DNA of 64,000 bases from Dehalococcoidia bacterium. GTDB taxonomy: Bacteria > Chloroflexota > Dehalococcoidia > Lucifugimonadales > UBA3495. The stretch's first letter is position 1. Each line of letters opens with the position of its first letter. The notes under the pieces are model-generated. The model was not told the origin of the DNA and ran no database searches. It saw nothing but the letters and a program-made list of their open reading frames with translations. The DNA lies in NCBI GenBank assembly GCA_034420475.1, contig DAOULH010000025.1, positions 1,593 through 65,592 on the forward strand. The letters run 5' to 3'. Positions 10,574 through 64,000 of the stretch are shown one piece after another. The position numbers and the translations under genes were made by a program.

Positions 10574-10584
10574 GTGTGACGTCG

Positions 10585-26648: not shown

Positions 26649-26764
26649 TAGATCACCTTCAGGTGGCGGCGCGGGCGGCTCGTTGTCGTCGCGGACCGCC
26701 AGGCAGTTACGATGTGCTGAGCCGTGGGATGCGATGGGGTGAGGGGAGGAGGCCGGAATCCGCT

Positions 26765-32385: not shown

Positions 32386-33039
32386 TCAGAAATCGCTGGT
32401 CCGTTCTTGGGAAACCTCGTTGGGTTGGTCGACGCGTTCGGGACAATCGGCCGCCGTGATGTCGCAGAAGCGACACTCCTGGAAGCTGGGCGTCGGCTTC
32501 GGCGGGTCAGGGGCGGCGAGGCGGCGGATGGTCGAGCCGAGTTGGTTGATGAACTGACCGGTCAGGGCGCCCCTGGGCACGCGGGCGATGCGGGAGGGAT
32601 AGACGACCTCGCCGGACAGCCTGGCGTGACGGAAGTGCTCTGGAATGGCCTTTGGGAGGGCGTACTGGTAGATCTGGAGTTGGACTGTGTGCCAGGGCTG
32701 TTCCTGGCCGGTTTTGACGTCGATGATGAGGGCGTCGTTGCCGCGGTCGACGATGAGGTCGGGCCGGCCGGCGAGAGTGGCGGTGCGGCCACGGAGCTGG
32801 AAGCTGTTCTGGGCTTCGACGTAAACGTCGCAGCCGCGTTCTTGCCACTCGGCTTTGGTCTGATTCAACAGTGCGGTGTGGTCCAGCAGCCACTGGGATT
32901 GGTCAAAGTCGCGGGGCGGCCTGTTCCAGTGCTGGTAGTGGGCTTTGAACCAGATGGCCCACTCACAGGACCGTTCGCCGGTGAGGAGGCGGGGCAGCCA
33001 GGTGGCCCAGATGTAGGGGTGTTCGCGTTGTTGGGGCAC
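32386..33039 (-). CDS. Cas4/RecB-like PD-(D/E)xK nuclease with Fe-S-type cysteines, not linked to any CRISPR
   Basis: GRPDLIV...ALIIDVKTG...QLQIYQYAL (D, DxK, QxxxY). One N-terminal Cys (ERSCEW) plus C-terminal CRFCDITAADC. Confidence 0.75.
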   Translation of the reverse strand: MPQQREHPYIWATWLPRLLTGERSCEWAIWFKAHYQHWNRPPRDFDQSQWLLDHTALLNQTKAEWQERGCDVYVEAQNSFQLRGRTATLAGRPDLIVDRGNDALIIDVKTGQEQPWHTVQLQIYQYALPKAIPEHFRHARLSGEVVYPSRIARVPRGALTGQFINQLGSTIRRLAAPDPPKPTPSFQECRFCDITAADCPERVDQPNEVSQERTSDF

Positions 33040-33132
33040 TGCACGGCTCCGGTAGGGGGAGTAGCCGTGGTCGGCTCCATTGGATGATATGTGCTGAAGA
33101 TTCAGGCGGGCAATGGCCGGCTGTCATCAAAT

Positions 33133-34257: not shown

Positions 34258-34324
34258 GGTTCGACGGTATCCGTGATTTGGGAATCCGGTTGGCGGAAAT
34301 AGAGTGGTTTGGGGTTTGGGCAAC

Positions 34325-34347
34325 AAAAAAGCCGCCTGTGGGCGGCT
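34325..34347 (-). terminator. rho-independent terminator after paralog 2
   Basis: Minus strand reads AGCCGCCCACAGGCGGCT followed by TTTTTTG. Confidence 0.7.
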
Positions 34348-34397
34348 CCGTTGGATGATATGCGCTGAAGACTCAGCCGGGCAATGGCCGGCTGTCA

Positions 34398-35522
34398 TCA
34401 AATGGAGTGAGGGTCGGCGTCCTGCGGCTTCAGGCTGACCGTGCGGTCCGGGTGGATGGTGAACCGCTGTCCGCCGCGCTTTCCTGCCAAAGCGTAGTAA
34501 ACCGCACCGGGGGTGACGTTGAATCGTCCGAGGATATGTTGCTGGATGTCGTCGTACGCAACCGGTTCAGTTGACTTGAGGAGCAGGTAAACGATCTCCT
34601 GGGTGATCTGGGTTCGCTCGGAGGTGGGTTGGCTGTCGGAGGAATGGCCGACGTCCCATGATTTGAGCCCGTAGGTGCTGGGCCCGGCCCATTTGTAGCC
34701 CTGGTGGGTGTGGATGGTCCCGGCGACCTGCACGTTGGTGTAGGTGCGGTCGATGCCGTCGAGTCGGGCTAAGCGGTTGGCGGATTGAACGATTTCCGGG
34801 ATGGTGAGAGGTTGGCCGGCTTTGTCCAGGGCCCGGCTGATGTAGTGTTTGGTGAAGATCGGGTCGTTCTTGATGGGTATGGTCCAACCTTTTATGGGGT
34901 GGAAGGCGCCGGTCTTTGGATCGGTAGCGGTGCCGGTCATGGCCTTGATGTGGAGAGCGATGTTGAATCTGGGCCACTGGGCGATGGTGTCGTGCCATTG
35001 GGTGAGGTGAGCACGGAGGTGACGGGGGGTAATGCCGCGGTGGTGGGTTCCGGCTACTTGGCGTGCATCATGGGCGAGGCGACGGAGGGATGGGCGCGGG
35101 CGTCTGGGTTTGTGCATGGTGTCCAGGATCACCAGGGCCCAGGAAGTTTGGTCGGGCGAGATGGCTCCGATGTTGGTGAGCTGCTGGATGACGGTTTCTG
35201 ATGCCTTGCCGGAAAGGCTGCGTGGCCGTAGTGCGATCTCTAGTCCTGCCCTATCGGCTATCTTTTCGGCTTTGGCAACAGCGATGCGTACGGGATTGCG
35301 GGGGTCCTTGCGAGCCTCGCGGAGCAGGCGTCTGGCTCCTTTCTCGGCGATCTGTCGCACGTATTCGCGGGTGATGCCGTATCGTTGAGCGATTTCGGCC
35401 AACGTCTGTCGGTCGTGCAGTGATGCGTGGACGATGTCCCTTTGCATCTGAGTGAGATTGGCCTGTGCCTCGTACCAGGCGGTGACGAACTGGTCGAGGT
35501 CGGGAAAGATTCTGGAGTCCAT
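34398..35522 (-). CDS. sigma-70 region 4-like HTH protein with HARE-HTH-like winged helix, paralog 2 (374 aa)
   Basis: Collinear with paralog 1 from MDSRIF to the shared C-terminus RTVSLKPQDADPHSI. Same length. Confidence 0.7.
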   Translation of the reverse strand: MDSRIFPDLDQFVTAWYEAQANLTQMQRDIVHASLHDRQTLAEIAQRYGITREYVRQIAEKGARRLLREARKDPRNPVRIAVAKAEKIADRAGLEIALRPRSLSGKASETVIQQLTNIGAISPDQTSWALVILDTMHKPRRPRPSLRRLAHDARQVAGTHHRGITPRHLRAHLTQWHDTIAQWPRFNIALHIKAMTGTATDPKTGAFHPIKGWTIPIKNDPIFTKHYISRALDKAGQPLTIPEIVQSANRLARLDGIDRTYTNVQVAGTIHTHQGYKWAGPSTYGLKSWDVGHSSDSQPTSERTQITQEIVYLLLKSTEPVAYDDIQQHILGRFNVTPGAVYYALAGKRGGQRFTIHPDRTVSLKPQDADPHSI

Positions 35523-35670
35523 GGTTCGATGGTATCCGGGTTGTGGAAATGGGGTTGCGAATGAATCGTTGTCAAGGAAGTGGTTGTCGGTGGAGGCGCC
35601 GGGAGGGGTCGATGCGGTATGGGTTCCGGTGTCGGGATGACACGAGAAGAGGCCGACGGTTGGAGGCATC

Positions 35671-35694
35671 AAAAAAAGCCGCACTTGGCGGCTT
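35671..35694 (-). terminator. terminator vestige upstream of paralog 2
   Basis: Minus strand reads AAGCCGCCAAGTGCGGCTT followed by TTTTTT. Resembles the 34325-34347 terminator and its flank (GGATG). Confidence 0.5.
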
Positions 35695-35900
35695 GGATGT
35701 GGTTCCCGGTAGCGGGAGTCGATTTCAGGGTTTCCCTGAATCGGAGACTGTGAGCGTGGCGGAGGTCGAGGAACCCGGTGTTGGGGTTAGGTTGGAAACC
35801 TGAGAGGTGGTGGTGAACGCGGTTTCGCGTTTGGGTTTAGGCGGTGTAAAACGTGTCAAAAATTGCCACGTATTCAGAAGGAAATACGTCATTATTGGCG

Positions 35901-35929
35901 TTGACAAGGCGTCAAGGCTCCAGTAGGAT
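35901..35929 (+). promoter_or_regulatory. sigma-70-type promoter candidate (TTGACA-17 nt-TAGGAT) overlapping a TTGACnnnnnGTCAA palindrome
   Basis: Read directly. About 75 nt upstream of the ATG at 36007. A second small inverted repeat ACGTATT...AATACGT lies just upstream. Confidence 0.5.
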
Positions 35930-36006
35930 ACGCGCAGTAGAAAAGCCCGGGGGTAGCCGGAAAGTCGGGCCCTGGGCTTCCAGAACGACGGAGGCTACTC
36001 GGAGAG

Positions 36007-36582
36007 ATGGAAAATTCTGGGGATGAAAGCGGTCTCTCGACAGACGAAGAAAGGCTGCGTGAGCACGAACTGATTATGCGGGACATGGCATGGACGGCGC
36101 TCGCGCGGATTAACGAGCATCTGCGGGATCTGGAGATGTGGGTGAATCTGTACGAGATGTATGACGGGATTCTGGGTGGCCTCACGCATCTCACATCCGC
36201 TGATGCTGAGAGGAAAAACCTGGCGGAGGAAATAGCAAAATGCAGGAATCAGCGTGAGGGAGTAAGGCGTGTCGCCGAATTGCAGGGTGGGACGGTGCGC
36301 GTGCGGGATGTGGCTCGACTGATCCATGAGTCTGCTCTGAGCAGAGGAAGTCTGTCGAGCGTAAGATCTGCGTTGCTGAGGTACGTTAAAGGCAGCGACG
36401 AATGGGAGGAGATGGGAGACGGGTACTTCCGTCTGGTGGGTAGGGGGCGGGTGGACGGTCCCAGACAAGGAGGATTGCCGTCGTTGCCGCCGAGATTGTC
36501 GCCAGTGATGGCAAAAGCCAGGGCTTTACGGCAGGAGGCGGAAGTCACGGTCGGTGGGGACGATGCGGCCGACGATGTCTAG
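36007..36582 (+). CDS. hypothetical protein with C-terminal winged-helix-like segment, 191 aa
   Basis: GGAGG lies 12 nt upstream. VRDVARLIHES...LLRYVKGSDEWEEMGDGYFRLVG resembles the HARE-HTH-like ending of the two paralogs. Confidence 0.5.
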   Translation: MENSGDESGLSTDEERLREHELIMRDMAWTALARINEHLRDLEMWVNLYEMYDGILGGLTHLTSADAERKNLAEEIAKCRNQREGVRRVAELQGGTVRVRDVARLIHESALSRGSLSSVRSALLRYVKGSDEWEEMGDGYFRLVGRGRVDGPRQGGLPSLPPRLSPVMAKARALRQEAEVTVGGDDAADDV

Positions 36583-36886
36583 GGGACCAGGGTTGGAATT
36601 GAGGTCTTTGCACATGATGGAGGGACGAAAGCGGCTTCGGGTGACGCATTTGATGACACGCTACGGGTTAGGTTGGGTGGCGTGAAATGGTATAGTGTGA
36701 CCGACATGCCAACGGTGTGTACGTGTCTGGAAAGCACGCTTTGGAAGCGCATTCGGCGGCGTTTTGACCGCATTGAGGAGGTGCCTGTGATCTGAAATGT
36801 CGGAATCACCCTGGTGGATTGGTCCGCTGGATCAGCGGAATGTACCGGGGAGATCGAGCACGATGACACGATATCGGAGGTGATCC

Positions 36887-38099
36887 GTGAGGGATCAAAA
36901 AAATCCGGGCCGTGAGTGGCCCGGGAAATCCGAGCCGCGGGAGATTGCGACGCCGCCCGCAGCTCGTGACCAAACCAAGGCGTCTCCCCAGCCGGTCCGT
37001 TTTAATGATACCGCACCCAATTCTGTGGTGCAAATCGCCGGCGGTGACCGGTTTGGGCAATCTGAGAGTGACGGCGGTTCTGGAGATTCGGTTGGTAACC
37101 CGGTGATGGTGCGCGCGGCGGTTTACGCGCGCACCGCGACCCCGAAGGGATCCGGTGAGGCCGGCCTGGATATGCAGGTGGCACGATGCCTGCGGTACGC
37201 GGCGGAACACCAATACGACGTGTCGCCAGAGCATATCTGGAGGGTAGTGGGATCCGGCGTGGATCCGCGCCTTGATGGTCTGACCGAGTTGATGGAGGTG
37301 ATAGACGCTGGCGAGCTGGACGTGGTGATGGTGTGTGGAGTCGGCAGGCTGTCACGGTCCATGGTCCGGTTGGTGTTCGTGGCCCAGTTGATGAGGGCCA
37401 AAGGCGTGCACGTAGTGGACGTGGGGGAGAGTGGTGGGAGACATCTGACGTCTCCTGTGGAAGTTGCAAACGCTGGACGATCGGGATCCGACGATCGGTG
37501 GTCTTTTGAAAATGTCACGACAGTCTTGGACCGGTAAGTGGCCCGTTTCAAGCACAAGGATACGGGTCCGCCGGCTGAAACGGTGATCGTTTCGAGGAGT
37601 GACAATCATGGAAGAGACGCGAGATAACACGGATCGAGCCATGCGCGCGAAGAGGAAGCGTGTGTCGGAAGAGATGAAGCCGGTGGTGGTTGGCGGTCCC
37701 GGTATCTACGGGTACGACTGCGACCCGGTGACCGGGGAGCGCACGATAAATGATGAGGAAGCGCTTGTCGTGCGGCGAATCTTCGAGTGGGACGCAGCGG
37801 GGTGGACCTGCAAAGCGATTGCTCAGGAGCTCAACGAACGGGGTGTGCCGACGCGGAGCGGGGCTCCGTGGAGCGCACGAATGGTGAGGTGCGCCTTGAG
37901 GCACAGGCCATACACCGGCAGATGGCGGTACGGCAAGTACCGTTGCTCGGGCGTGTCCCCCAGGTCGAAGAATGCACAAGGAGGGTGGATAGATATTGAG
38001 GTGGGCGGTCTGAGGATCGTCAGTGACGAGGCATTCGAGAACGCTGCGAGGCGTGGCGTATCCCGCGCGATACGGCGGGGGCGCCATGACGTTCAGTGA
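36887..38099 (+). pseudogene. decayed large serine recombinase (resolvase domain and recombinase domain in two frames; no zinc ribbon or coiled coil)
   Basis: The first ORF has AAVYARTAT where the intact paralog has YRRVSD, so the catalytic Ser position is Ala. The second ORF (37599-38099) has GIYGYDCDPVTGERTINDEEALVVRRIFEW, matching GIYGYDYDTVTQIRTVNEVEAAVVVMMFEW of the intact gene. Confidence 0.7.
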
Positions 38100-38708
38100 A
38101 CAAGACGCCTACGACCCCTGCTGTGGCTCTGCAGCGACGGCAAAAAAAGCATCCTTGGTGGAAAGGAGGTGATGGTGAACTGAAACTTTCGGCATCGTGG
38201 CGGCGTGGTATTCGGAATGCATGGTCGCGGCGATGCGATATGGAGAGAACGCAAAGTTGGAGGTGATCCGATATGGATCGAATGACGTCGTTGGACCGCA
38301 AGCGGTCCGCAGATAAAGCGGCACCGCGGGAGATCGAAGAGTCCACCGCGGCGCCAGACCCGGACGAGGCTCAACTCGGACCGGCTACAGATGATGTTAA
38401 CAGCACTGGAGGGGAATTGTCCACCGGGGTTGAGGACGTCGATGGATGGAATGAGGAGGGGCGCGATGTGGTGGTGGATAGCGGTCGGTACCGAGACCAG
38501 GGAATGACGGTTCGCGTGGTCGTGTTGGGTGGTGTCCCTGATCGACGGCGATGGTCCTGGCTGCAAAGGAGTGTGCAGCGCGGGTAGAAGGAAATCGGGC
38601 GGTGATGCCGGTTGCGCTGGAAGTTCAGTGTTGCGGTTTTCACCGCCCGGTCGAAAAGGTGCGACAGCCTCGCAATGTTCGGGGGCAAATGGCTTTAGGA
38701 GGAATCCG

Positions 38709-40397
38709 ATGCCTGGAAAGAACGAATTCAACGATGACGTGACGACTGGGGCGGGATCGCCGGCTGACCCTGACGAAGGGCCGGTGGTGAAGTACGCAGA
38801 GTTGGTCTTGCCGGTAGAGGAAGGGGGGCGGCAACCGTTTCTGGGGAACATGGCAGGGTATAGGCGCGTGAGCGACCCGAATCAAGCGAGGGACGGGACA
38901 TCCTTGGATACCCAGGGAGAAGAGCTGATGCGGTATGCGGCCGATCAGGGCTACCAGATGCGCCCTGAGTGGCTCTTCACGGATGTGGTGACTGGGGCTT
39001 CTACCGTGAGACGTGGATTCACGGAATTGCTGGAGTTCTTGGATACGGGCGTGATCGACGCGGTGAGCGTCTATGACCCGGACAGATTGGCGAGGGACCC
39101 GCTGGTGCTGCTCACGCTGAGCAACGAGATTTTGGAAAGGGGGGTGTCCCTGGAATTTCTGCGAGGTCCGTCGGGCGATAGCGACGAGGCCCAGATGATG
39201 AGGGTAATCATGGCCTATGCGGCCAAGAGAGAGCGTGCGCAGATCGCGGAGCGTACGATGCGTGCGAAGAGGCGGGTTGCCCGAAACGGGCGGATGCCGG
39301 TCGGTGTTGGCGGGAACGGGATTTACGGGTACGACTACGACACGGTGACGCAGATACGCACGGTGAACGAGGTGGAAGCTGCGGTGGTGGTGATGATGTT
39401 CGAGTGGTACGTGGGGGGTTGGTCAACCTACGCGATTTCGGAGGAATTGAACCGACGCGGACTGGTGACGAAGCGGGGAAAACTATGGCATCCCCGAACG
39501 GTGCGGAACATTCTGACGCATACCTCGTATGTGGAATGGGACGTGTACGGGAAATACCGTTGCCAGGTCTGGTTTGAGAACCAGGGCAAGCCCAATGAGA
39601 AGAAGCGCATCAAGCGTACGCTGAGGCCGGAAAGCGAGTGGGAGTGGATCTACGGATTCTCTCCGAGGATCACGGAAGATGATTTGTGGGGAGCTGCGCA
39701 AGCTCGTTTGGCGATGCCGAGTGTGCGGACGGGTAACCAGGATCTGTACCTGTTGACCGGGTACACGCGGTGCAGTGTGTGTGGTCAGCCGGTGAACGGC
39801 GGCAGCAAGTACAACGGAAGGCGGAGGTATCGTTGCCAGGGTACTCAGAAGCGGGGTAAATTGATTCCGAAGACGTGCAGCGCGTCATACATTCCTGCGG
39901 ACGAGTTGGAGGCAGCGGTGTGGGGCGGCCTGGTGAACGCTCTGAAGAATCCCGTGGTGCTGATGGCGGATTTGGAAGAACACTTTGATACTGGTGGGGG
40001 CGATGTGGGCCCGGAGATCCGAGACTTGAAGAAGGCTGTTGGTGAGTGTGAGAAGCAGGAGTCCAGGCTGAGGGAGGTGTTTTCGAGGGATCATGAATAT
40101 GAGCTGGATCAGCTGATGAGGGATCTGGCGCCGATCAGGGTAATGCGGTCGGAGCACCAGCGTGAGCTGGAGAGGTTGGAGAGGCAACGGGAAGTTGCAG
40201 GCTCTGCCGACGAGTGCAAGGCGCTGGTGCAAGCCAAACTGGAGGAACTGTCGGTGGGTCTGGAAGAGCTGGACTTCGATGGTAAGCGTCAGGTGATGGG
40301 TGCGCTGGACATGAAGGTGAAAGCAGTGCTGGGTGACGTGTCGATGTCGATCGTGGTGGGATTTAATCCCACTACCATTGGACGTACATCGGCATGA
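38709..40397 (+). CDS. large serine recombinase (integrase)
   Basis: Has YRRVSDPNQ with the catalytic Ser, a recombinase domain, the zinc ribbon CSVCGQPVNGG...YRCQG and a C-terminal coiled coil. AGGAGG at 38697-38702 lies 6 nt before the ATG at 38709 (ATG at 38850 is an alternative). The last 26 nt overlap dnaN. Confidence 0.85.
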   Translation: MPGKNEFNDDVTTGAGSPADPDEGPVVKYAELVLPVEEGGRQPFLGNMAGYRRVSDPNQARDGTSLDTQGEELMRYAADQGYQMRPEWLFTDVVTGASTVRRGFTELLEFLDTGVIDAVSVYDPDRLARDPLVLLTLSNEILERGVSLEFLRGPSGDSDEAQMMRVIMAYAAKRERAQIAERTMRAKRRVARNGRMPVGVGGNGIYGYDYDTVTQIRTVNEVEAAVVVMMFEWYVGGWSTYAISEELNRRGLVTKRGKLWHPRTVRNILTHTSYVEWDVYGKYRCQVWFENQGKPNEKKRIKRTLRPESEWEWIYGFSPRITEDDLWGAAQARLAMPSVRTGNQDLYLLTGYTRCSVCGQPVNGGSKYNGRRRYRCQGTQKRGKLIPKTCSASYIPADELEAAVWGGLVNALKNPVVLMADLEEHFDTGGGDVGPEIRDLKKAVGECEKQESRLREVFSRDHEYELDQLMRDLAPIRVMRSEHQRELERLERQREVAGSADECKALVQAKLEELSVGLEELDFDGKRQVMGALDMKVKAVLGDVSMSIVVGFNPTTIGRTSA

Positions 40398-41532
40398 CCA
40401 CATGTACGTACCGGTCGGAGTCGGCGGGCCGGAACACGCCGGGGCTGGAGGAGTTGGTCACCTCGATGGCGACCTTGCCCCGTCCCAGCACGTTCACGAT
40501 GTCCTGGAGGTAGCGGACGTTGAAGGCGATCTTGGCGTCCGCGCCGTCCAACTGATCGATGTCCAGCTCGTCCAGGCTGTCGCCCACCTCCTCGGAACGC
40601 GCCGAAACCTTGAGCTGGCCGCCGTCGCTGGCTTCCTGGGGCATCATCTCCAGCCGGACGATGTTGCTGCCGTCACGGGCGAAGACCGACGCCGACTGCG
40701 TGGCGCGCTTCAGGTCGTCCAGTTCCATCACGGCTCGGGTCTCGTATCGCTCGGGGATGAGTTGCTCGTAGTTGGGGAAACTGCCCTGGAGCAGTTGGGA
40801 AACGATCTCAACGTGTTCCAGCTTGAACATGGCCTGCCCGCGGTCGGGGGACAGGGTCATGTGAACGGGACTGCTCTGTTCCGAAGCCAGACGCTGCACT
40901 TCCTGCATAGTTCGCGCCGGAACGATTACCTTGATTTCCTCTTCCACCGACTGCGAAATCTGGCCGGAATAGACTGCCAGACGGAAGCCGTCGGCGGCGG
41001 CCATCACCACGCTGGATTCGCTGAGCTTGAGTTCCACCCCGGTCAGCACCGGGCGCGATTCGTCGGTCGCGGCCGAGAATGCCACCAGGCTGATCCCGGA
41101 GCGCAGGACGCTGGGGTCGATGTCAATGGCGGTGCCGGTATCGACCTGGGGAACGGGCGGGAAGTCTGCGGCGTCGGCTCCGTTGATATGGGTCACGGCG
41201 CGACCGCAGGCCAGGTGCAAAACGCTGCCCCCGCTGGCCGGCCCGTCAGCGTCGGGTCCGCCCAGATCGAGGTCAATCCGGTCACTGGGACGGGTGTTGA
41301 CCCAGTCGGCCAGGAGGCGGTGCGGAACCGTTATCGCTCCTTCTTCCTCGATCATCGCGCCGATCCACGTGGTGATGGCGATTTCGAGGTTGGTGGCGGA
41401 CAGCATCAGCATGCCCTGGTCGGTCCGGAGCAGGACGTTTTGGGTTATGGGCAGCGTCGATCTGCTGGCCACCGCCCGGCTGACTACGCTGAGGCCACGG
41501 GCCAGATTCTCCTGAAGGCACGACAGTTTCAT
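40372..41532 (-). CDS. dnaN: DNA polymerase III beta subunit (sliding clamp)
   Basis: MKLSCLQENLARGLSVVSRAV...TNLEIAI and a C-terminal VVMPM motif. Length is 386 aa. Confidence 0.95.
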   Translation of the reverse strand: MKLSCLQENLARGLSVVSRAVASRSTLPITQNVLLRTDQGMLMLSATNLEIAITTWIGAMIEEEGAITVPHRLLADWVNTRPSDRIDLDLGGPDADGPASGGSVLHLACGRAVTHINGADAADFPPVPQVDTGTAIDIDPSVLRSGISLVAFSAATDESRPVLTGVELKLSESSVVMAAADGFRLAVYSGQISQSVEEEIKVIVPARTMQEVQRLASEQSSPVHMTLSPDRGQAMFKLEHVEIVSQLLQGSFPNYEQLIPERYETRAVMELDDLKRATQSASVFARDGSNIVRLEMMPQEASDGGQLKVSARSEEVGDSLDELDIDQLDGADAKIAFNVRYLQDIVNVLGRGKVAIEVTNSSSPGVFRPADSDRYVHVVMPMYVQW

Positions 41533-45255: not shown

Positions 45256-45359
45256 TGAGATGATCCTCGCGCTGATAGCAGTATCTTACTGTAACATTGA
45301 ACGCGTTCGACTGTAAAATTTGTTTGTCACCAGTTACCGGTTGCCCCGAATGTGATGCC

Positions 45360-46172
45360 ATGACTTTTCCTGATATTTCGCGCCTGTCGGTGCTGGCGTG
45401 CTATGCCCATCCGGACGACGAGGGGTTCGCCTCGGGCGGGCTGTTGGCGCTGCTGGCGGCCGGCGGCGCGCGGGTCACGCTGGTGTGCGCCACCAACGGC
45501 GACATCGGAGAGATCAGCGACCCCGCGCTGGCCACACCGGAAAACCTGTGGCAGGTCCGCAAGCAGGAACTCCGCAACGCCATGGACATCACCGGCATCA
45601 GCGACGTGCGGTTCCTGGACTACCGGGACAGCGGCATGGAAGGTTGGGATGACAACCGCCATCCTAACGCCTACTGCAACGCCAGTACCGAAACGGTGGT
45701 GGAGCGGTTGCGCGGCATCATCGCCGAGGTCAACGCGCACGTCGTCATAACCCACGACCCCACCGGCGGCTACGGCCACCCCGACCACAAGACCATGTGC
45801 GCCCACGCCACCGCTGCCGCCGAGCGCGCCTCGGATCCTGACGCGGCCACGCCCCTGCTGTATTACGTCTGCTTCCCCCGGAGCGTGTTCCAGCGCATGT
45901 GGCAGGAGATGACCGACCGGAACATCACCCCGCCCTTTGCCGTTGACGCGGTGGACACCCTGGGCACGCCCGACGACGAGGTGGCCACCACGCTGGACAT
46001 CTCGCCGTGGGTGGAGACCAAGATCGCGTCCCTCTCGTGCCATCGCACCCAGATCAGCAGCGACGGCCCCTTCGAGCAACTGCCGCCGGAGGTGATGCGC
46101 CGGCTGATGGGAACGGAGTACTACCAACTGGCTGCGCCGGCGGGGGCGGTGGATTTGCTGGCGGCGCTGTGA
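45360..46172 (+). CDS. PIG-L/LmbE family deacetylase
   Basis: Has the LACYAHPDDEGFASGG signature, followed by HPDH. Confidence 0.85.
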   Translation: MTFPDISRLSVLACYAHPDDEGFASGGLLALLAAGGARVTLVCATNGDIGEISDPALATPENLWQVRKQELRNAMDITGISDVRFLDYRDSGMEGWDDNRHPNAYCNASTETVVERLRGIIAEVNAHVVITHDPTGGYGHPDHKTMCAHATAAAERASDPDAATPLLYYVCFPRSVFQRMWQEMTDRNITPPFAVDAVDTLGTPDDEVATTLDISPWVETKIASLSCHRTQISSDGPFEQLPPEVMRRLMGTEYYQLAAPAGAVDLLAAL

Positions 46173-46187
46173 CGACTGTGGAGTTTC

Positions 46188-46751
46188 GTGATGACGACTG
46201 AGCAGAGTTTCTCCCAGGACATGGGCAAGTTTATCGAGGCGGCGCTGTACATTGGCGAGCGGTCGGAAGACGACCCGCACTTTGGGGTGAGCAAGCTGGT
46301 GAGGCTGCTTTACTACTCCGACTGCGGGGCCTACGCCGCGTGGGGTAAGCCCATCACCGGCACTACCTACCTGCATTTTCCCCACGGCCCCTACCCGGAG
46401 AACTGGTATCAAGCTCGGATGAAAATGGAACAGTCCGGCTCCATAACCGTGCTCCGCGACCAGCACGCCCAAGGCTACCACCGCTACGGCCTGCTCACCA
46501 ACCGCCCGGCCAATCGGGAGGCGCTGGCCCCGGAGGACCTGGAGGAAATGGATTTACAGATGGAGCGGTTCGCCGATTACAGCGCGGCAGCCATTGAGAA
46601 CCATTCCCAGTACGAAGCTGCCTGGCTGACCACCGAGGATGGGCAGCCCATGCCCTACGAGATGGCCGGCTTTACCGCCCCGCCGCTGAGCCAGAACTCC
46701 ATCCGCCACGGATTGAAAGTCGCCGATGAATTCGTTGCCCGGACAAGGTGA
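46188..46751 (+). CDS. Panacea (SocA/DUF4065) domain antitoxin candidate
   Basis: KLVRLLYYSDCGAYAAWGKPITGTTYLHFPHGPYP fits the Panacea-domain pattern. It overlaps the next small ORF by 26 nt. Confidence 0.7.
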   Translation: MMTTEQSFSQDMGKFIEAALYIGERSEDDPHFGVSKLVRLLYYSDCGAYAAWGKPITGTTYLHFPHGPYPENWYQARMKMEQSGSITVLRDQHAQGYHRYGLLTNRPANREALAPEDLEEMDLQMERFADYSAAAIENHSQYEAAWLTTEDGQPMPYEMAGFTAPPLSQNSIRHGLKVADEFVARTR

Positions 46752-50842: not shown

Positions 50843-50934
50843 AATTCCGGTTGCTGCATCAGCGTGTAAGGGCGAGCCTGTTGACTACAAGTTCGCCCTG
50901 TTTCATTAGGTACTGCAAGTGCCGGCACGCGCCC

Positions 50935-53900
50935 ATGATGGAATTCAATCAGGAATACACCGCTATGACCCCCTCCGATTTTCGCGCTTACATTCAAACC
51001 CTGCGGGTCAACATCTCCCAGGGCAATGCTACCGAGCATACCCACCGCTCGGCCCTGCAAGCGTTGGTGGAGGCGAACGCCGGCATCAGCGCTATCAACG
51101 AGCCCAGGCGCATCGACTGCGGCGCGCCCGATTTCGCCATCGTCAAATCCGGTGATAACCCGTTGTCCATTGGCTATATCGAAACCAAAGACGTTGACGC
51201 CAATTTGGACAACGTCGAAAACGATGAACAACTGAAACGCTACCGTGCCGGCCTCTCTAACCTGATACTGACCAACTATACCGAATTCCGCTGGTACGTG
51301 GACGGCGAGTTGCGAGGATCAGCGGTCCTGGCCAATATTGACGGTAACGGTCGCCCATCCATCACCGCCGATGGTATCAGCGATACCGGCGTGCTGCTGG
51401 GAAACTTTCTCAGCCGCAGCCCTGAATCCGTCGGCGACTCCGTGGAACTGGCCCGACGCATGGCGCGCCTTACTCACATTGTCCGCGACGCGGTGCGCGC
51501 CGGTTTTGAGCAGGGCCTGGTATCGTCGGACGTACAGGACCTCTACCTGGCCTCGCAGGAATGCCTGGTGCCCGACCTTTCTGCCGACGCCTTCGCCGAT
51601 ATGTTCGCCCAGACTCTGGCCTACGGCCTGTTTGCAGCCCGAGTCAATCATCCGGCCCGCGACTTCAGCCGTCACACCGCCGCTCACTTCATTCCCCCCA
51701 CCAATCCCTTTATACGCCGGATTTTCGGTATGGTGGCCGGCCCCAGCCTTGATGATGAGCCCTTCGTGAGCTTCGTGGACGACCTGACGCAACTGCTGGG
51801 CAACGCCGATATGTCGGCGATACTGGCCGACTTCGGCAAGCGGACCATCCGCCAAGATCCGATAATGAACTTCTATGAGACCTTCCTCGCCGCCTATGAC
51901 CCGGCCCTGCGGGAACGTCGGGGCGTCTATTACACGCCGGAGCCGGTAATTGGCTACATCGTCCGTTCCGTAGATCACCTGCTGCGGGAAAGTTTCGGCT
52001 GCGCCGAGGGACTGGCGGACTACGCCATGACCAATTATCGCTGCGATGACGGCGCCGGAAACGTGAAAACGGGCGAGGCGCACCGTGTCCTTGTGCTGGA
52101 CCCGGCCTGTGGCACCGGTTCCTTTCTGTACGCCGTGATTGACCACATCCGAGAGCGCTATCACGACGCGGGTCTCGGTGGCATGTGGAGCGGCTACGTC
52201 AAGGAACATCTGCTGCCCCGCCTGTTCGGGTTCGAGTTGCTGATGGCCCCCTACGCCATGGGACACCTCAAGCTCGGTATGCAGTTGGCGGCACGGGACT
52301 TGCCTGACGAGCAGCAGGCCGGTTGGGCCTATGAGTTTGACAGCAACGAGCGACTGCGGGTGTACCTTACCAACTCTTTGGAGCAGACCGACCGACAGAC
52401 GCCGGTCATGTTCGGCCCGTTGCGCGTTATCACCGAAGAAGCCAACGCGGCCGCCGAAGTCAAGCGTGACTTGCCCATTATGGTGGTGCTGGGCAACCCG
52501 CCCTATTCCGGCCATTCCTCCAACAAGGGCGAATGGATCAGCGGGCTGATTGACGACTACAAGCGGGTTGACGGCCAGCCCCTGGGTGAAAGAAACACCA
52601 AGTGGCTGCAAGATGACTACGTGAAGTTCATACGGTTCGGGCAGTGGCGCATCAAGCAGTCCGGCAGCGGCATACTGGCGTTCATCACCAACCATGCCTA
52701 CCTGAACAACCCCACCTTCCGGGGGATGCGCCAGCAACTGCTGGACACCTTCACGGACATTTACCTGCTGGACCTGCACGGCAATTCCCGCACCAGAGAA
52801 CGCGCTCCGGACGGCGGCGTTGACGAGAACGTTTTTGACATCCAACAGGGCGTGGCCATCGCAATATTCGTGAAAGCGCCGGACAGGCCGGGGCCGGCCG
52901 CGGTTCATCACGCTGACTTGTGGGGTACGCGCGACGCCAAGTACGCGGCCCTGTCCGAACTGGAAATATCAAACACCGATTGGGAAGAGCTCCGTCCGGC
53001 GTCTCCTGATTATCGGTTCAAGCCCTGGGACAATGAACTTGAGGCTCAATACCTGCAATGGCCCAAGATTTCAGACGTTATACCGATTCATTCCGCAGGT
53101 ATCGTAACTGCACGAGATAGTTTGACTATTCGCTGGTCGCGTGATGAGGTAATGACGGTAGTACGCGATTTCGCTGGGATTCCGTCCGAAACGGCCAGAG
53201 GCAAGTACAACCTGGGTGGAGATGTCCGGGACTGGAAGGTTCAGTTGGCGCAGGATGACCTGAATGCCGCCGGCGTAAATGACGAACTGGCTGTGCCAAT
53301 CCTGTACCGGCCATACGATACCCGCTATACCTACTACACCGGCAAAACTCGCGGTTTTATCTGTATGCCGCGCCCGGAAGTAATGCGGCATTTGCTCGCA
53401 GATGGAAACCTAGCGCTCATAACGACCCGTCAGACTACCGATCAATGGGGAGCGTTAGTCACCCAATACATTTGCGGACATAAAACGTGCGCTGCACAAG
53501 ATATCAACACTGCATTCCCTCTTTACACCTACCCCGCCGAACAGGAAATCGCCGCTGGCCTGTACGACACTGGCTACCGGGAACCTAATCTTGCTCCCGA
53601 CTTCACTGCCGCTATGGAGAGTGGCCTCGGCCTGCGCTTTATCGCCGACGGACCCGGCGACTTGCAGGCTACGTTCGGGCCGGAGGACGTGTTCCACTAC
53701 ATCTACGCCGTGTTCCACTCGCCCGCCTACCGGGAGCGTTACGACCAGTTCCTGCGGGCCGATTTTCCCCGCGTGCCATTTCCCCGCGACGCGGCGCAGT
53801 TCCGCGCCCTGGCCGGCTTGGGGCAGCGGCTGACCGATACCCATCTGCTGCGTTCGCCGGAATTGGCGGCATCGACGGTAGCCTTTCCCATCGCCGGTGA

Positions 53901-54483
53901 CAGCGCCATCGCCAGGGGTTACCCCAAATACACGGAACCCAACCCCGCCGGCGGCGTTGTGCAGGGCCGCGTCAATATCAACCGCCGCCAGTATTTTGAG
54001 GGCATCGCGCCGGAAGTCTGGCAGTTCCGCATCGGCGGCTACCAACCCATGGATAAATGGCTGAAAGACCGCCGAGGTAGAACGCTGTCTTTTGACGATA
54101 TCGACCACTATCGCCGTATGGCGGCGGCGATTGGCGAAACCATCAACCTGATGGAGCGGGTTGACCGGGCAATTGAGGAAACGGGCGGGTTGTTCGGGAC
54201 GAAAACCGAACAGACGCCAACCAATGAGAGCATCCCCTACCCTGAAAAGCAGCGTGAGGCGCACGCGATTTATGATGCACAGATCCGCCCTTTGCTGGCG
54301 CCGGGCGACGAGGACAAGTACGTGATGATTGACATTGTCTCCGGAGACTACGAAATAGGCGAAAATCGAGCCACCCTGGTTCGCATATTGCGGGAGCGTC
54401 GCCCTGACGCGATTATGCACACCATACACCGCCACCAATCTTACCAGGGACGTATCCGCAGCCCGCGCCGCGTCGTCCGTTAG
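50935..54483 (+). CDS. type IIG / Type ISP-family restriction-modification enzyme (PD-(D/E)xK-like N-terminus + N6A methylase + ISP-type C-terminal domain) with an extra ~92-aa C-terminal extension
   Basis: ATEHTHRSAL...CGAPDFAIV...IGYIETKD. GVYYTPEPV, VLDPACGTGSFLYA, VLGNPPYSGHS. FHYIYAVFHSPAYRERY, IGGYQPMDKWLKDR. The extension spans 54205-54483. ATG at 50965 is an alternative start. Confidence 0.8.
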   Translation: MMEFNQEYTAMTPSDFRAYIQTLRVNISQGNATEHTHRSALQALVEANAGISAINEPRRIDCGAPDFAIVKSGDNPLSIGYIETKDVDANLDNVENDEQLKRYRAGLSNLILTNYTEFRWYVDGELRGSAVLANIDGNGRPSITADGISDTGVLLGNFLSRSPESVGDSVELARRMARLTHIVRDAVRAGFEQGLVSSDVQDLYLASQECLVPDLSADAFADMFAQTLAYGLFAARVNHPARDFSRHTAAHFIPPTNPFIRRIFGMVAGPSLDDEPFVSFVDDLTQLLGNADMSAILADFGKRTIRQDPIMNFYETFLAAYDPALRERRGVYYTPEPVIGYIVRSVDHLLRESFGCAEGLADYAMTNYRCDDGAGNVKTGEAHRVLVLDPACGTGSFLYAVIDHIRERYHDAGLGGMWSGYVKEHLLPRLFGFELLMAPYAMGHLKLGMQLAARDLPDEQQAGWAYEFDSNERLRVYLTNSLEQTDRQTPVMFGPLRVITEEANAAAEVKRDLPIMVVLGNPPYSGHSSNKGEWISGLIDDYKRVDGQPLGERNTKWLQDDYVKFIRFGQWRIKQSGSGILAFITNHAYLNNPTFRGMRQQLLDTFTDIYLLDLHGNSRTRERAPDGGVDENVFDIQQGVAIAIFVKAPDRPGPAAVHHADLWGTRDAKYAALSELEISNTDWEELRPASPDYRFKPWDNELEAQYLQWPKISDVIPIHSAGIVTARDSLTIRWSRDEVMTVVRDFAGIPSETARGKYNLGGDVRDWKVQLAQDDLNAAGVNDELAVPILYRPYDTRYTYYTGKTRGFICMPRPEVMRHLLADGNLALITTRQTTDQWGALVTQYICGHKTCAAQDINTAFPLYTYPAEQEIAAGLYDTGYREPNLAPDFTAAMESGLGLRFIADGPGDLQATFGPEDVFHYIYAVFHSPAYRERYDQFLRADFPRVPFPRDAAQFRALAGLGQRLTDTHLLRSPELAASTVAFPIAGDSAIARGYPKYTEPNPAGGVVQGRVNINRRQYFEGIAPEVWQFRIGGYQPMDKWLKDRRGRTLSFDDIDHYRRMAAAIGETINLMERVDRAIEETGGLFGTKTEQTPTNESIPYPEKQREAHAIYDAQIRPLLAPGDEDKYVMIDIVSGDYEIGENRATLVRILRERRPDAIMHTIHRHQSYQGRIRSPRRVVR

Positions 54484-60266: not shown

Positions 60267-60722
60267 GTGTCGGGTGATAACATGGGAAATCCGATGGAAA
60301 ACCGTGATGCTTCCAGAGCAATCGTGATGGCTACCACCGAGACCGACGTCAACGAGACCGTGACAATCAACCGCCAGGTAAAGGCGCATCTGGATGCTGC
60401 CGACCGGGAGTTGATGGTTCCCGACACTGTGAAAAGCTCCGCTGAACTGTGGTCTGCCGTCCGCTTGGCCGCAGTTCTGACGCTCAAACAGCGCGGGTTG
60501 CCCCACGGGACCGACGACGATATTCTGGCATCCATCGACATCCTGGATGATCAGGAAAAGGCTGCCGGGAAGATCAAGCTGAAATACGGCGCCGCGGGCA
60601 TATTCCGCGATAACGCCAGCCACGACTTTATGGAATTGCACGAGTTCTTGTTCTGCCGTCCTTCTGCCACCGAATTCGCGGACTGGATGCAGGCCCTGCT
60701 GGAAAAGAAAATGCCATGCTGA
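60267..60722 (+). CDS. PaREP1/HEPN-like small protein, 151 aa
   Basis: SAELWSAVRLAAVLTLKQRG...FRDNASHDFM pattern. Its stop overlaps the next start (ATGCTGA). Confidence 0.45.
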   Translation: MSGDNMGNPMENRDASRAIVMATTETDVNETVTINRQVKAHLDAADRELMVPDTVKSSAELWSAVRLAAVLTLKQRGLPHGTDDDILASIDILDDQEKAAGKIKLKYGAAGIFRDNASHDFMELHEFLFCRPSATEFADWMQALLEKKMPC

Positions 60723-61087
60723 CCGGAGCGGAGCACGCCAGAGAAGCGTTGGACTGCATCCAGATCAGCCATCAACTAATGGCGCGCGGACGCCGTCGGC
60801 CTGCCTCCGATGTCCTCTGGTTGGCCGTAAAGCACGCCATCAGCGTGATCGGCATCGCAAACGGACAAGATTATGGCAAATATCAGCACAAGCGGGCTGT
60901 AATTCGCAGACTGGCTGACGAGACCAACAATGCTGAACTTAATGACTCCCTAAAAGTGGCGATGCGCATTCACGCCGATGCGGACCAAGGGTTTCTGTCT
61001 GTTTTGGAATTGATTGTACGGCAGCAGCAAACTTTGGACTTTGCTGAACAGCTGCTTGCCATAGCCAATGTAACCAGCGACCACTAG
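60716..61087 (+). CDS. PaREP1/HEPN-like small protein, 123 aa
   Basis: ASDVLWLAVKHAISVIGIANG...RIHADADQGFL pattern. Confidence 0.45.
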   Translation: MLTGAEHAREALDCIQISHQLMARGRRRPASDVLWLAVKHAISVIGIANGQDYGKYQHKRAVIRRLADETNNAELNDSLKVAMRIHADADQGFLSVLELIVRQQQTLDFAEQLLAIANVTSDH

Positions 61088-61098
61088 AGGCAACCAAA

Positions 61099-62166
61099 TT
61101 GACCACTAATTTCACCGACATAACCACCACCACCTGGGACGACGCCCTGTCCGCCATCGAGAAGGGCTACGAGCTGGGCTGGAGCGACGGCCTGCCCGTG
61201 GTGCCTCCCACGACCGCTCGCGTGGCCGAGTTCATCGGTTACTCCGGCCGAAATCTCGACGACGTGATTGGTGAACTGCCGGAACGTCGCCGGGTGATAA
61301 CGGTGGAAAAGGCGGCGGCCAACTCCGTGATGGCCGGCTGCCTGCCCGAGTATTTCCCCGTGGTGCTGGCCGCCACCGAGGCCATGCTGGACCCCGTGTT
61401 CAACCTGGTGGGGCCGTCGTCCAGCATGGGCGGCGCGGCGGTGCTGTGCATCGTCAACGGCCCGATCCGGGAGCAGATCGGGCTGAACAGCCGCAACAAC
61501 CTGTTCGGACCGGGCAACCGCGCCAACGGCACCATCGGCCGCGCCATTCGGCTCATCCTGATGAATGCCTGCGCCGCCATCCCCGGCCTGTTCGACCGGA
61601 GCGTCATCGGACACCCCGGCAAGTACACCTACTGCATCGCCGAGGCGGAGGGCGAAACCCATTGGACTCCCCTGCACGTTGACCGCGGCTTCGACGCCGG
61701 GGACAGCACGGTTACGGTGTTCGCCAGTGAAGCTCCGCGCCAAGTGAGGTCGGTGGGGCGGCCTGAGGCCATCCTGTACGCTATTGCGGACGTGGCGTCG
61801 TCGTTGGGAACGTCGATGTCCACCTCCGGATCGGTGGGCGACGTTTCCGTGGGCATCCGCCAGGGGCAGGTGGGGATCACCATCGCCGGCAACAGCAACC
61901 TGTGGCGGGACTGGACGAAGCAACAGGTCAGGGAGTACCTGCACGCCAACATCCAGCGCTCCGTGGCCGACCTGAAACGCGGGCTGGTTCTGCGCGGCGA
62001 CGTGGAGCCGGGCGATGAGGCGGAGATGGTTCCCCTGATTCCCGAACCGGACGATATTCTGGTAGTATTCGCCGGCGGTGAGGAGTCCAACTCCTCGTCG
62101 GTGATACCCAGCTGGGGACCGAAGGTGGGCTCAACCGCCGTCACCAAGGCAGTCCGTCCCGTCTGA
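61099..62166 (+). CDS. conserved-looking hypothetical protein, 355 aa
   Basis: Long ORF with coding-like composition. Contains GWSDGLPVVPPT, which I cannot assign to a family. Confidence 0.55.
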   Translation: MTTNFTDITTTTWDDALSAIEKGYELGWSDGLPVVPPTTARVAEFIGYSGRNLDDVIGELPERRRVITVEKAAANSVMAGCLPEYFPVVLAATEAMLDPVFNLVGPSSSMGGAAVLCIVNGPIREQIGLNSRNNLFGPGNRANGTIGRAIRLILMNACAAIPGLFDRSVIGHPGKYTYCIAEAEGETHWTPLHVDRGFDAGDSTVTVFASEAPRQVRSVGRPEAILYAIADVASSLGTSMSTSGSVGDVSVGIRQGQVGITIAGNSNLWRDWTKQQVREYLHANIQRSVADLKRGLVLRGDVEPGDEAEMVPLIPEPDDILVVFAGGEESNSSSVIPSWGPKVGSTAVTKAVRPV

Positions 62167-62194: not shown

Positions 62195-62578
62195 ATGACC
62201 TCCCTCAGCCACCGAGCCGACGCCATTTTTGCCGACGCTCGCACGCTCCAAGAAGACGCCTTGGAAATGCTGGAGCTGGGCACAATACGGAACGCTGCCG
62301 AAAAGGCCTGGGGAGCGACCAAGCGAGCCACTGACGCCCTCATCCTGGCGCGTACCGGCAATGAACCTGAAAGGACGCCGGAAACCTCTGCTGAATTGCG
62401 GGCCCTGGCGGGTCGAAACCCCGAAGTGCAGAGCCTGGTTGGGCGCTATTATTCGAGGCAGGGCGTATTGCATGGCGATTGTTTCTATCTGGGCCTTTGC
62501 GAACCTCTGGAGGATACGGAACGTCGCATCCGGGAAACAGCCACTTACATCAACGACGCTGAACGATTGGCTGCATAA
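62195..62578 (+). CDS. PaREP1/HEPN-like small protein, 127 aa
   Basis: AAEKAWGATKRATDALILA...VLHGDCFYLGL. Confidence 0.55.
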   Translation: MTSLSHRADAIFADARTLQEDALEMLELGTIRNAAEKAWGATKRATDALILARTGNEPERTPETSAELRALAGRNPEVQSLVGRYYSRQGVLHGDCFYLGLCEPLEDTERRIRETATYINDAERLAA

Positions 62579-62591
62579 AGGAGAACTGAAC

Positions 62592-63128
62592 ATGGCAACC
62601 CAACAATACACGCTGGTCAACCCGACCACCGAGCCGATCATTGCGCCTTTCGACGGCGCGCCGCGCCTGCCCACCCTGGCCGGCACTCGGGTGGGCCTCA
62701 TCGACGACAGCAAGCGCAACGCGGACGTGCTGCTCGAAGAGTTGGCCGAAGTCCTGCGCAACCGCTACGAGATTCGCGAGGTGCGTTGGCTCCGCAAGCC
62801 CAGCGCGTCGCGACCCGCCGACCCGCAGGAACTGGAGGAATTGGTGGCCAACGTCGACTCGGTGGTGGTCGCCATCGGCGATTGAGGGAGCTGCAGCGCG
62901 TGCAGTGTGCACGACGGAATCCACGTTGAGAAGGCCGGCCTCCCCTCCGCCACCATCTGCACCGACCGGTTCATCCCCACGGCCAACGCCATGGCCAAAA
63001 TGTGGGGGGCGGAAGACTATCCGACGATCTTCACCCAGCATCCCATCGAGAACCTGGACCGTCCCGCCCTGCGGGAACGCGCCGAGGGTCTGGCGACCGA
63101 GGTGGCGGCGATCCTGACGAGCGGCTAA
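62592..63128 (+). CDS. UGSC-type selenoprotein candidate (178 aa) with TGA at 62883-62885 read as selenocysteine
   Basis: AAGGAG lies 9 nt before the ATG at 62592. The ORFs ending at 62885 and starting at 62907 are in the same frame, giving ...VVAIGD-U-GSCSACSVHDG... GC-rich hairpins begin 5 nt after the TGA. Confidence 0.65.
62890..62913 (+). promoter_or_regulatory. candidate bacterial SECIS hairpin(s)
   Basis: Either GCUGCA-gcgcg-UGCAGU (62890-62906) or CGUGCA-gug-UGCACG (62899-62913), directly downstream of the in-frame UGA. Confidence 0.4.
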
Positions 63129-63199
63129 CCCCGCACGTATCGATTTCTCGGCAGGGGCGAATGATCATTCGCCCTTGTTTTTTGCAATGGGTTTGGCTG

Positions 63200-63622
63200 T
63201 CAGTAGGCGACCAATTCTATCCGGTCGCCAAACCGGCGAGAGTCGGCGGTGTTGAACGTGAGAAGACGACGCTCTCCGTGGGCCAGCATGGTTGCGACAA
63301 TGTTGGCGTCGTGGATCTGCCTCCCGCCAATGGGGATTTCTCGAAGCAGCGTGAGTAGCCACCCAGTTGCCGCTATCCCGTCTTCGAGTATCTCGAAGTC
63401 GTTGAGTAGCCAGTTCACGTCATGGAGGGCCTCATTGGAAGTTAATGGCCCTGACCAAATTTGCGGGCGGGTGACCACCGCCAGATACTCACGTACAACT
63501 TGGCGGCTGATCCTCAACGGTTCCGCTCCCTGACGTGCAGTGGTCAACAGTTCCCTGGCGATTTCGTGATGCGGTGCTCCGGCAGCACGAGAATTTACCA
63601 GCACGTTGGTGTCAACAAACAT
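63200..63622 (-). CDS. vapC: PIN-domain toxin VapC
   Basis: MFVDTNVLV..., the later acidic residue in FEILEDG, and DANIVATML...LLTFN. The start is taken at the ATG at 63622, 8 nt after the upstream stop. Confidence 0.8.
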   Translation of the reverse strand: MFVDTNVLVNSRAAGAPHHEIARELLTTARQGAEPLRISRQVVREYLAVVTRPQIWSGPLTSNEALHDVNWLLNDFEILEDGIAATGWLLTLLREIPIGGRQIHDANIVATMLAHGERRLLTFNTADSRRFGDRIELVAY

Positions 63623-63629
63623 CGGGGAG

Positions 63630-64000
63630 CTAAAGCCTCTCGTCGTAGAGGTCTTCACGTCGCAGGCTCAAGTCTTCTGGCCATGGGCCCAAGGAACGGG
63701 CTGGCCACACTTCATCGAGACCGCGATTCCGGAAGGCCGGCGAATCCTTCCGCCAGAACAACACTGTCTCAGCCTCTATGTCAACTTTCGCCACCTTCCA
63801 TCCGGCGGCTAGGCAGGCCCTGACTTGATCAAACCCGCTGTCGTACCACCAGGGGCTGTATTCACGCGCCCACGGGGGTAATTTGAACCCGACAATGGCC
63901 TCGACTTGGCTGAAAGTGGCGCACCACTCGGATTCCGTAATCTTGCAGAGATGCTCGTACAGCTTGCGGTATTCGCCTTTTAGCGCGTGTTCCAGGTACA
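63630..64000 (-). CDS. partial CDS (5' end outside the window): putative antitoxin partner with a non-canonical N-terminal domain
   Basis: The minus frame is open to the window edge: ...YRKLYEHLCKITESEWCATFSQVEAIVGFKLPPWAREYSPWWYD...GWKVAKVD...PWPEDLSLRREDLYDERL, then a stop 8 nt before the vapC ATG. It is absent from the ORF track because it has no start in the window. Confidence 0.55.
   Translation of the reverse strand, partial: YLEHALKGEYRKLYEHLCKITESEWCATFSQVEAIVGFKLPPWAREYSPWWYDSGFDQVRACLAAGWKVAKVDIEAETVLFWRKDSPAFRNRGLDEVWPARSLGPWPEDLSLRREDLYDERL

Follow-up and report, generated by a model that had tools for sequence, protein, structure and literature searches.

Two adjacent open reading frames of a Dehalococcoidia bacterium as one probable UGSC-family selenoprotein gene with a hairpin behind its in-frame UGA

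Near the end of a 64,000-nucleotide stretch of DNA from a Dehalococcoidia bacterium (GenBank assembly GCA_034420475.1, contig DAOULH010000025.1, positions 1,593 to 65,592), called the window in the following, two short open reading frames (ORFs) lie one behind the other. Gene calling with UGA as a stop yields from them two 'hypothetical proteins' of 97 and 73 aa, and the question raised by this locus is whether these are two proteins or the two halves of one selenoprotein of the UGSC family, in which the UGA is read as selenocysteine (Sec, U). The latter had been proposed in an earlier sequence-only reading of the same DNA. The two adjacent ORFs are very likely (with a probability of roughly 0.93) one UGSC-family selenoprotein gene, whose UGA is recoded via a selenocysteine insertion sequence (SECIS) and whose flavodoxin-like product is likely the subunit of a partner-linked oxidoreductase. 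The parts of the gene are the following:

62592-63128, plus strand: UGSC-family selenoprotein gene as read here, complete, 178 codons including Sec98, from ATG (62592-62594) to the stop TAA (63126-63128)
62578-62583, plus strand: Shine-Dalgarno sequence AAGGAG, with an 8-nt spacer to the ATG, read from the sequence
62883-62885, plus strand: putative Sec codon UGA, residue 98, opening the U-G-S-C redox motif (62883-62894)

One reading frame on both sides of the UGA

The GTG-started ORF from 62907 shares its frame with the ORF that begins at ATG 62592 and ends at 62885, as the sequence-only reading had stated, and translation through the UGA gives the expected 178 residues with the motif D-U-G-S-C (...VVVAIGD-U-GSCSACSVHDGIHVEKAG...). 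The AAGGAG that it had named in front of the ATG is likewise present. Homologues begin at the same point as the window protein (N-terminus MATQQYTLVNPTT), and the tryptic peptide predicted to span the Sec position is PADPQELEELVANVDSVVVAIGD-U-GSCSACSVHDGIHVEK.

For the family searches cysteine was put in place of Sec. Two curated models match over their full length and above their cut-offs: NF041046 of NCBIfam ("UGSC family (seleno)protein") reaches 153.5 bits where 125 are required (profile positions 2-147 of 147), and PF24696 of Pfam ("UGSC") reaches 187.8 bits where 25 are required (positions 3-171 of 172). This bears out the family assignment that had been made from the motif. NF041046 is also matched by 16 of 16 diverse full-length members; R25, K41, K69, S100, C101, D108 and T124 are invariant among them and H150-P151 nearly so. 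A UGSC-containing protein was first described from the Sargasso Sea and Global Ocean Sampling (GOS) metagenomes, and in the GOS ocean data UGSC is among the most abundant predicted selenoprotein families (PMC2398784). The GOS family has about 175 aa, the U-G-S-C motif and uncultured aquatic hosts, all in agreement with the window protein. The window gene is a member of this known family and differs from it in nothing essential; the family has been known since 2005-2008, is already named by a curated model, and the novelty is low. UGSC is abundant in aquatic metagenomes, its function is not known (PMC2398784, PMC13188914), and a review of 2026 still lists it as uncharacterised (PMC13188914). 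The closest loci are found in metagenome-assembled genomes of uncultured Dehalococcoidia and SAR202-cluster Chloroflexota, several of them from marine sponges, and one of these loci (L007, CBDBDS010000013.1) encodes a protein 99% identical to that of the window.

Three sets of loci were compared: a genome set of 87 sequences, made up of the window, 80 species-representative genomes and 6 additional long contigs; 80 metagenome loci of the Joint Genome Institute (JGI); and 8 loci of distant clades, which are 33-44% identical in the N-terminal half. The TGA is conserved in all of these 175 Sec-type loci (87 + 80 + 8). In 87/87 sequences of the genome set its column does not vary and the C-terminal half follows it directly in frame 0, and it is kept with an in-frame downstream half in 80/80 metagenome loci as well as in 8/8 loci of the distant clades. 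The refuting case named in the sequence-only reading was that homologues break off ahead of the motif and unrelated DNA follows; it is contradicted, since the downstream half is conserved in frame at every locus. Across the 50 codons 3' of the TGA frame 0 contains no stop. The ratio of non-synonymous to synonymous polymorphism (pN/pS), which like the codon-variation figures refers to 85 distinct sequences, is 0.10 downstream of the TGA, which points to strong purifying selection there, and 0.26 upstream. Minor-allele fractions downstream are 0.03, 0.04 and 0.24 at codon positions 1, 2 and 3, and third positions hold most of the variation on both sides.

Furthermore, the N-terminal ORF was searched exhaustively against 1.84 billion cluster representatives, which resulted in 924 clusters. 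Among the best 150 of these 924, 128 representatives stop at G-D or A-D, one residue before the Sec column, and 4 are Cys forms at that column. The preference for Sec over Cys is strong here (128 to 4 in this best 150) as it is in the GOS data, where 255 Sec and 21 Cys forms with the UxxC motif were counted (PMC2398784). Cysteine homologues, the alignment of which had been suggested as a check, do place Cys at the TGA column (GD-C-GSC in P0328, P0359 and P0390, GA-C-GSC in P0334), and at the Cys-form loci L177-L179 the codon there is TGC. In one lineage, met in two independent samples (L087:356-934 and L088:73-693, homologues P0001 and P0003), the TGA is replaced by CGA (Arg) and the Gly after the Sec column by Ser (GD-R-S-S-C); the nucleotides of the hairpin described below are unchanged, with 6/6 pairs, and a recent TGA-to-CGA conversion may have taken place in these loci.

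A global reassignment of UGA is ruled out: TGA is the normal stop of 11/26 well-supported genes in the window, including the upstream gene introduced below as the partner, and the recoding is therefore local. As far as a comparison of sequences can tell, the loci show a UGA that is selected to be kept and translated. We infer that the UGA at 62883-62885 is decoded as selenocysteine in this organism.

Databases hold the two halves of such genes as separate entries. N-terminal halves make up about 118 among the best 120 of 409 matches, and C-terminal halves at least 120 among 224 matches, with 67-75 aa and also matching PF24696. Public catalogues contain hundreds of 97-100-aa and 67-75-aa "hypothetical proteins" that are halves of this one selenoprotein; if each pair were joined, the annotated gene content of many Dehalococcoidia/SAR202 genomes would be set right.

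The hairpin behind the UGA

The prototype of the bacterial SECIS is the fdhF element of Escherichia coli. In the window a candidate element of this type follows the UGA:

62897-62916, plus strand: bacterial SECIS hairpin with a core stem of 6 bp, a GUG loop, the bulged A62914 and two closing pairs

The core stem is formed by CGUGCA (62899-62904) and UGCACG (62908-62913) around the loop GUG (62905-62907), and it is closed by the pairs 62897-62916 and 62898-62915. Its free energy is -9.7 kcal/mol and the spacing from the UGA to the loop is 19 nt. The published model of the bacterial SECIS comprises a loop of 3-9 nt with a G among its first two nucleotides, a stem of 4-16 bp, a distance of 16-37 nt from UGA to loop and a minimum free energy (MFE) of at most -7.5 kcal/mol (PMC13188914); the window hairpin lies within all of these constraints, so that a hairpin with the properties of a bacterial SECIS stands where the sequence-only reading had expected one. 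That reading was right about a GC-rich hairpin after the TGA but not about its start, since the extended stem begins 11 nt (62897) and the core 13 nt (62899) behind the TGA and not 5 nt. Like the consensus of the bSECISearch model (PMC13188914, Fig. 2A) the hairpin lies inside the coding sequence just past the UGA. It departs from the consensus in its very short length and in its unusual invariance among the sequences of the SAR202 clade, and in distant UGSC clades the upkeep of the stem forces coordinated amino-acid changes.

The codons +5 to +10 (GCG TGC AGT GTG CAC GAC) show no synonymous variation in the 85 distinct sequences except for one GAT, and this invariance includes 4- and 6-fold degenerate sites. 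In nearby Ala, Val and Ser codons the commonest codon is used only 35-82% of the time. The 80 metagenome loci display the same invariance of the hairpin with a single change, which is located in the loop. The core hairpins of the window and of the distant loci compare as follows (5' arm, loop, 3' arm):

Window: CGUGCA-GUG-UGCACG, 6/6 pairs
L171 and L170: CGGGCA-GU(G/U)-UGCUCG, 6/6 pairs, U-A changed to G-U
L169: CGUACA-GUG-UGUACG, 6/6 pairs, G-C changed to A-U
L175: CGUGGG-GUC-UCCACG, 6/6 pairs, C-G changed to G-C and A-U to G-U
L176: CGUGGG-GUC-UACAUG, 5/6 pairs, as L175 with G-C changed to G-U in addition, pair 5 (G, A) unpaired
Cys forms L177/L178 and L179: decayed, 4/6 pairs, mismatches within the stem

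The hairpins of the distant clades keep the same register and their loop always opens with G-U. On one arm Cys is changed to Tyr, Gly or Trp and on the other His to Tyr or Leu, so that a coding-region SECIS appears to constrain the protein, with residues on the two stem arms changing together. In a non-redundant alignment of 98 sequences 99.4% of the cells are paired and double-sided changes occur in 5/8 pairs; the covariation values were reached by 0/500 shuffles, and all slid registers are far worse.

Several observations speak against a SECIS at this place. The compensatory changes come from a handful of distant lineages and amount to 6 cells. Shuffled sequence folds as well as the 63 nt that follow the TGA (MFE z 0.33), folding energy alone is not distinctive (z -1.4 to +0.45), and Rfam, which has no curated model of this type of SECIS, gave no match in the window at gathering thresholds, nor around the TGA up to E 10. 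Within the close clade RNAalifold finds invariant pairs only. Because the MFE z-scores and RNAalifold within the close clade are uninformative, the case for the hairpin is built on the synonymous sites and the distant clades. Read as evolutionary evidence, these demonstrate selection at the RNA level on a hairpin of the SECIS type. In the proposed mechanism the hairpin would form in the mRNA 11-33 nt past the UGA and act as a bacterial SECIS; following the established bacterial Sec pathway, SelB-GTP-Sec-tRNA(Sec) would bind to it and deliver Sec at UGA 62883 of the paused ribosome.

Gene callers and databases list exactly the two products that would be expected if the locus held two independent genes, one for a 97-aa protein ending at TGA 62885 and the other for a separate 73-aa protein from GTG 62907. 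Such an arrangement is highly improbable, as no peptide of the family is better conserved than the one (GSCSACS) that the 21 nt from the TGA to the GTG encode in frame, the Cys and Arg forms have uninterrupted ORFs, both halves belong to a single Pfam/NCBIfam domain and a single predicted fold, and GTG 62907 lacks a Shine-Dalgarno sequence. The TGA is also just one base away from TGC, and the same split would arise if a Cys-type UGSC gene had become a pseudogene through a nonsense mutation, or if the TGA were a sequencing error. Its occurrence in 175 independent loci, which stem from a wide range of assemblies and sequencing technologies, a purifying selection that is tighter downstream (pN/pS 0.10) than upstream and the conserved RNA hairpin behind it reduce the chance of such an origin to almost nil.

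Translation through the UGA could also proceed without Sec, by a near-cognate Trp or Cys or by another recoding, for instance in a lineage that has lost the Sec machinery. In the 64-kb window this machinery was not observed: selA, selB, selC and selD are absent among the scanned ORFs, and tRNA genes including that for tRNA-Sec were found neither in the window nor in any fetched locus. This counts against selenocysteine, and the CGA of L087 and L088, which have kept the hairpin, implies that the position tolerates change. A readthrough of this kind is still quite unlikely, for the hairpin fits the SelB-type consensus of bacterial SECIS elements, its compensatory upkeep is restricted to TGA-bearing lineages and it is decayed in the Cys forms. 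Furthermore, the homologous residue is a Cys within a UxxC/CxxC redox motif and UGSC has long been recognised as a selenoprotein family (PMC2398784). Indirect support for Sec insertion is provided by the SelA and SelB COGs, which are reported to be found together in most bins of sponge symbionts from various phyla (PMC5649159); sponges are the habitat of several close relatives of the window organism.

A scan of the window for in-frame TGA codons between segments of high GC content at third codon positions gave no convincing candidate for another selenoprotein gene. A PIG-L deacetylase gene (45297-46172) and a SocA/Panacea antitoxin-like gene (46188-46751) share a frame and are a TGA plus 15 nt apart, and this pair was rejected as two unrelated genes.

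Predicted fold, partner gene and possible function

An AlphaFold2 model was built for P0001, a full-length homologue 57% identical to the window protein, from an alignment of 140 sequences. It has a predicted local distance difference test (pLDDT) score of 92 and a predicted template modelling (pTM) score of 0.86, and it consists of a single domain whose beta-sheet contains strands from both halves. The fold is a five-fold beta-alpha repeat in a three-layer, flavodoxin-like sandwich; the product of the UGSC gene is thus predicted to be a single flavodoxin-like alpha/beta domain. A Foldseek search with the model against the PDB gave lumazine synthase, flavodoxin domains of flavodiiron proteins and the C-terminal domain of GH3 (TM 0.4-0.5), and no thioredoxin among the top 50 matches. 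Sequence and profile searches of the PDB with UGSC returned noise only. In the model the Sec column comes immediately behind strand 3, and the helix that follows carries the resolving Cys in its first turn. Redox pairs that alternate between selenol/thiol and selenenylsulfide are usually placed in this way, at the end of a strand and the start of a helix. Judged from the motif geometry and the Sec/Cys pair, Sec98 and Cys101 probably form a redox-active selenenylsulfide couple. A 'likely Trx-like fold' was suggested for UGSC in 2008 (PMC2398784); the flavodoxin-like model and the Foldseek result do not support it.

The genes around UGSC are the following:

61099-62166, plus strand: partner gene, 355 aa, uncharacterised family, directly upstream of UGSC in most related loci
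62195-62578, plus strand: PaREP1-like ORF, 127 aa (Pfam PF05942, E 6e-8), between the partner and UGSC genes
60716-61087: second PaREP1-like ORF, unrelated to that at 62195, on the other flank of the partner gene
63150-63183, plus strand: intrinsic terminator, GGGCGAAU-GAUC-AUUCGCCC, then the U-run UUGUUUUUU
63200-63658, minus strand: PIN-domain toxin, shortly behind the UGSC gene, overlapped by a 54-aa ORF (region to 63794)

The partner gene is found upstream of UGSC on the same strand in 85/87 loci of the genome set and in 67/82 metagenome loci. Its homologues adjoin UGSC also in the distant Sec clades, with 41-49% identity, and in the Cys forms, where they precede UGSC in L177/L178 and follow it in L179; the downstream position recurs in L175. 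The family has 4,318 homologues, none of them with a Pfam domain or a name. Searches of Pfam, NCBIfam and the PDB with the partner protein gave no match, not even when a profile was used and the E-values were relaxed. The motifs GW[TS]DGLPxxPP, AGC81, NGP, RAN..GR and C179xAE are invariant in the family. A fusion of UGSC to a domain named 'Unknown_1' has been reported from GOS reads (PMC2398784), and the partner family may be this 'Unknown_1'.

The PaREP1-like ORF at 62195-62578 occurs in 13/87 loci, the window included, and is a variable insertion outside the conserved gene pair. Elsewhere the spacer between partner and UGSC holds a DUF1326 gene (L060:3279-3899; marine subgroup) or a DUF948-like ORF (L013:3552-3944), and in further lineages it is only 12-130 nt long; this spacer is an insertion hot-spot. 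The PIN gene is present in 12/87 related loci and, because of these low numbers, both it and the PaREP1-like ORF at 62195 are regarded as recent insertions. The terminator (-19.4 kcal/mol, z -4.6, equalled by 0/200 shuffles) had been missed by the promoter/terminator pattern scan. In L001-L006, close relatives that lack the PIN insertion, genes for Trm112p, CopD and an AhpC/Redoxin-family protein lie about 1.3-2 kb downstream of UGSC. The AhpC/Redoxin gene has a called length of 173 to 238 aa in these near-identical loci, which could be due to the choice of start codon or to another Sec-truncated peroxiredoxin-like gene.

When 16 diverse UGSC members were searched for secondary matches, the GrdB model TIGR01917 was found in 7/16 (best E 3.7e-6), the GrdB/PrdB subfamily model TIGR01918 in 6/16, GrdF in 2 and GrdH in 1. 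The sole match outside this group of B subunits is a weak one to HdrA in one member (E 0.005). Residues 82-160 of the window protein align to model positions 331-400 of 431, in register with Sec. The Sec motif of GrdB, GrdF, GrdH and PrdB, which are subunits of the glycine, sarcosine, betaine and D-proline reductases, is of the UxxC type like that of UGSC (PMC2398784, Table 2). GrdB and PrdB act together with a separately encoded partner subunit, and UGSC may do likewise. Membership in GrdB/PrdB was rejected, since the scores are far under the cut-offs, only residues 82-160 align and the architecture of about 430 aa, compared to the 178 aa of UGSC, is not found. The relation would be at most a distant homology of the Sec-bearing segment.

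On the basis of the gene linkage and the GrdB/PrdB similarity, the UGSC protein and its 355-aa partner probably form, with moderate confidence, a two-component oxidoreductase, for which GrdB/PrdB are the nearest analogy and in which UGSC would act as the redox-active subunit. Several points count against this model. It is drawn by analogy only; the window protein reaches 21.5 bits where TIGR01917 has a cut-off of 602.2, and 17.8 where TIGR01918 has 65.45; and the partners of GrdB and PrdB are the pyruvoyl proproteins GrdE and PrdA, to neither of which the UGSC partner has any similarity. In the window itself the PaREP1-like ORF separates the partner from the UGSC gene, and the AlphaFold2 model of the partner (alignment of 27 close homologues) has a pLDDT of 51, too poor for a fold search. 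Among the called neighbours of the UGSC gene grdA, trxB and trxA were not seen. It is a tentative and rather doubtful extension of this model that UGSC and the ~350-aa partner are an unrecognised two-subunit selenoenzyme, with a Sec domain distantly related to Stickland-type B components, which could catalyse a step, either reductive or dependent on thiol/selenol, in the breakdown of organic matter by SAR202 and other aquatic bacteria. Recurrent wider neighbours of UGSC are a family III CoA-transferase, an amidohydrolase_2 and a hydantoinase, which would fit such a catabolic role; an aldehyde dehydrogenase gene is a further neighbour.

Nothing in these results overturns the current understanding of UGSC. 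What they add is the correction of the annotation, a documented SECIS, a near-obligatory partner gene, a flavodoxin-like model and a weak but specific link to GrdB/PrdB. Beyond the literature go the predicted flavodoxin-like fold and the near-constant pairing with an unannotated gene of ~350 aa.

Other features of the window

Apart from the UGSC locus, the window contains a defence island at 3563-26813 with a DISARM/Dpd-like combination of genes, followed by recombinase genes and dnaN, and a further restriction-modification gene:

3563-5314, minus strand: GmrSD type IV restriction enzyme
5417-10714, minus strand: type IIG restriction-modification enzyme
10947-11831: DNA methylase
13632-14111, minus strand: DUF7689 protein
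14098-19563, minus strand: DruE-like helicase, 1,821 aa
19565-23779, minus strand: DrmMI-like methyltransferase
23781-26813, minus strand: DpdE/DrmD SNF2 helicase (E 4e-187)
28917-31862: 981-aa ORF without Pfam or PADLOC match
33133-35684, minus strand: two paralogous ORFs of ~425 aa, which match sigma-70 region 4 only
36887-37537 and 38529-40397: two serine recombinases, abutting dnaN
40372-41532, minus strand: dnaN
50851-54483: Type ISP restriction-modification enzyme, 1,210 aa (Type_ISP_C, E 3e-80)

Taken with the defence island, the region 28917-40397 resembles the border of a mobile element that has integrated here. The Type ISP enzyme sits among metabolic genes, namely those for a thiolase, a GMC oxidoreductase and a GNAT acetyltransferase.

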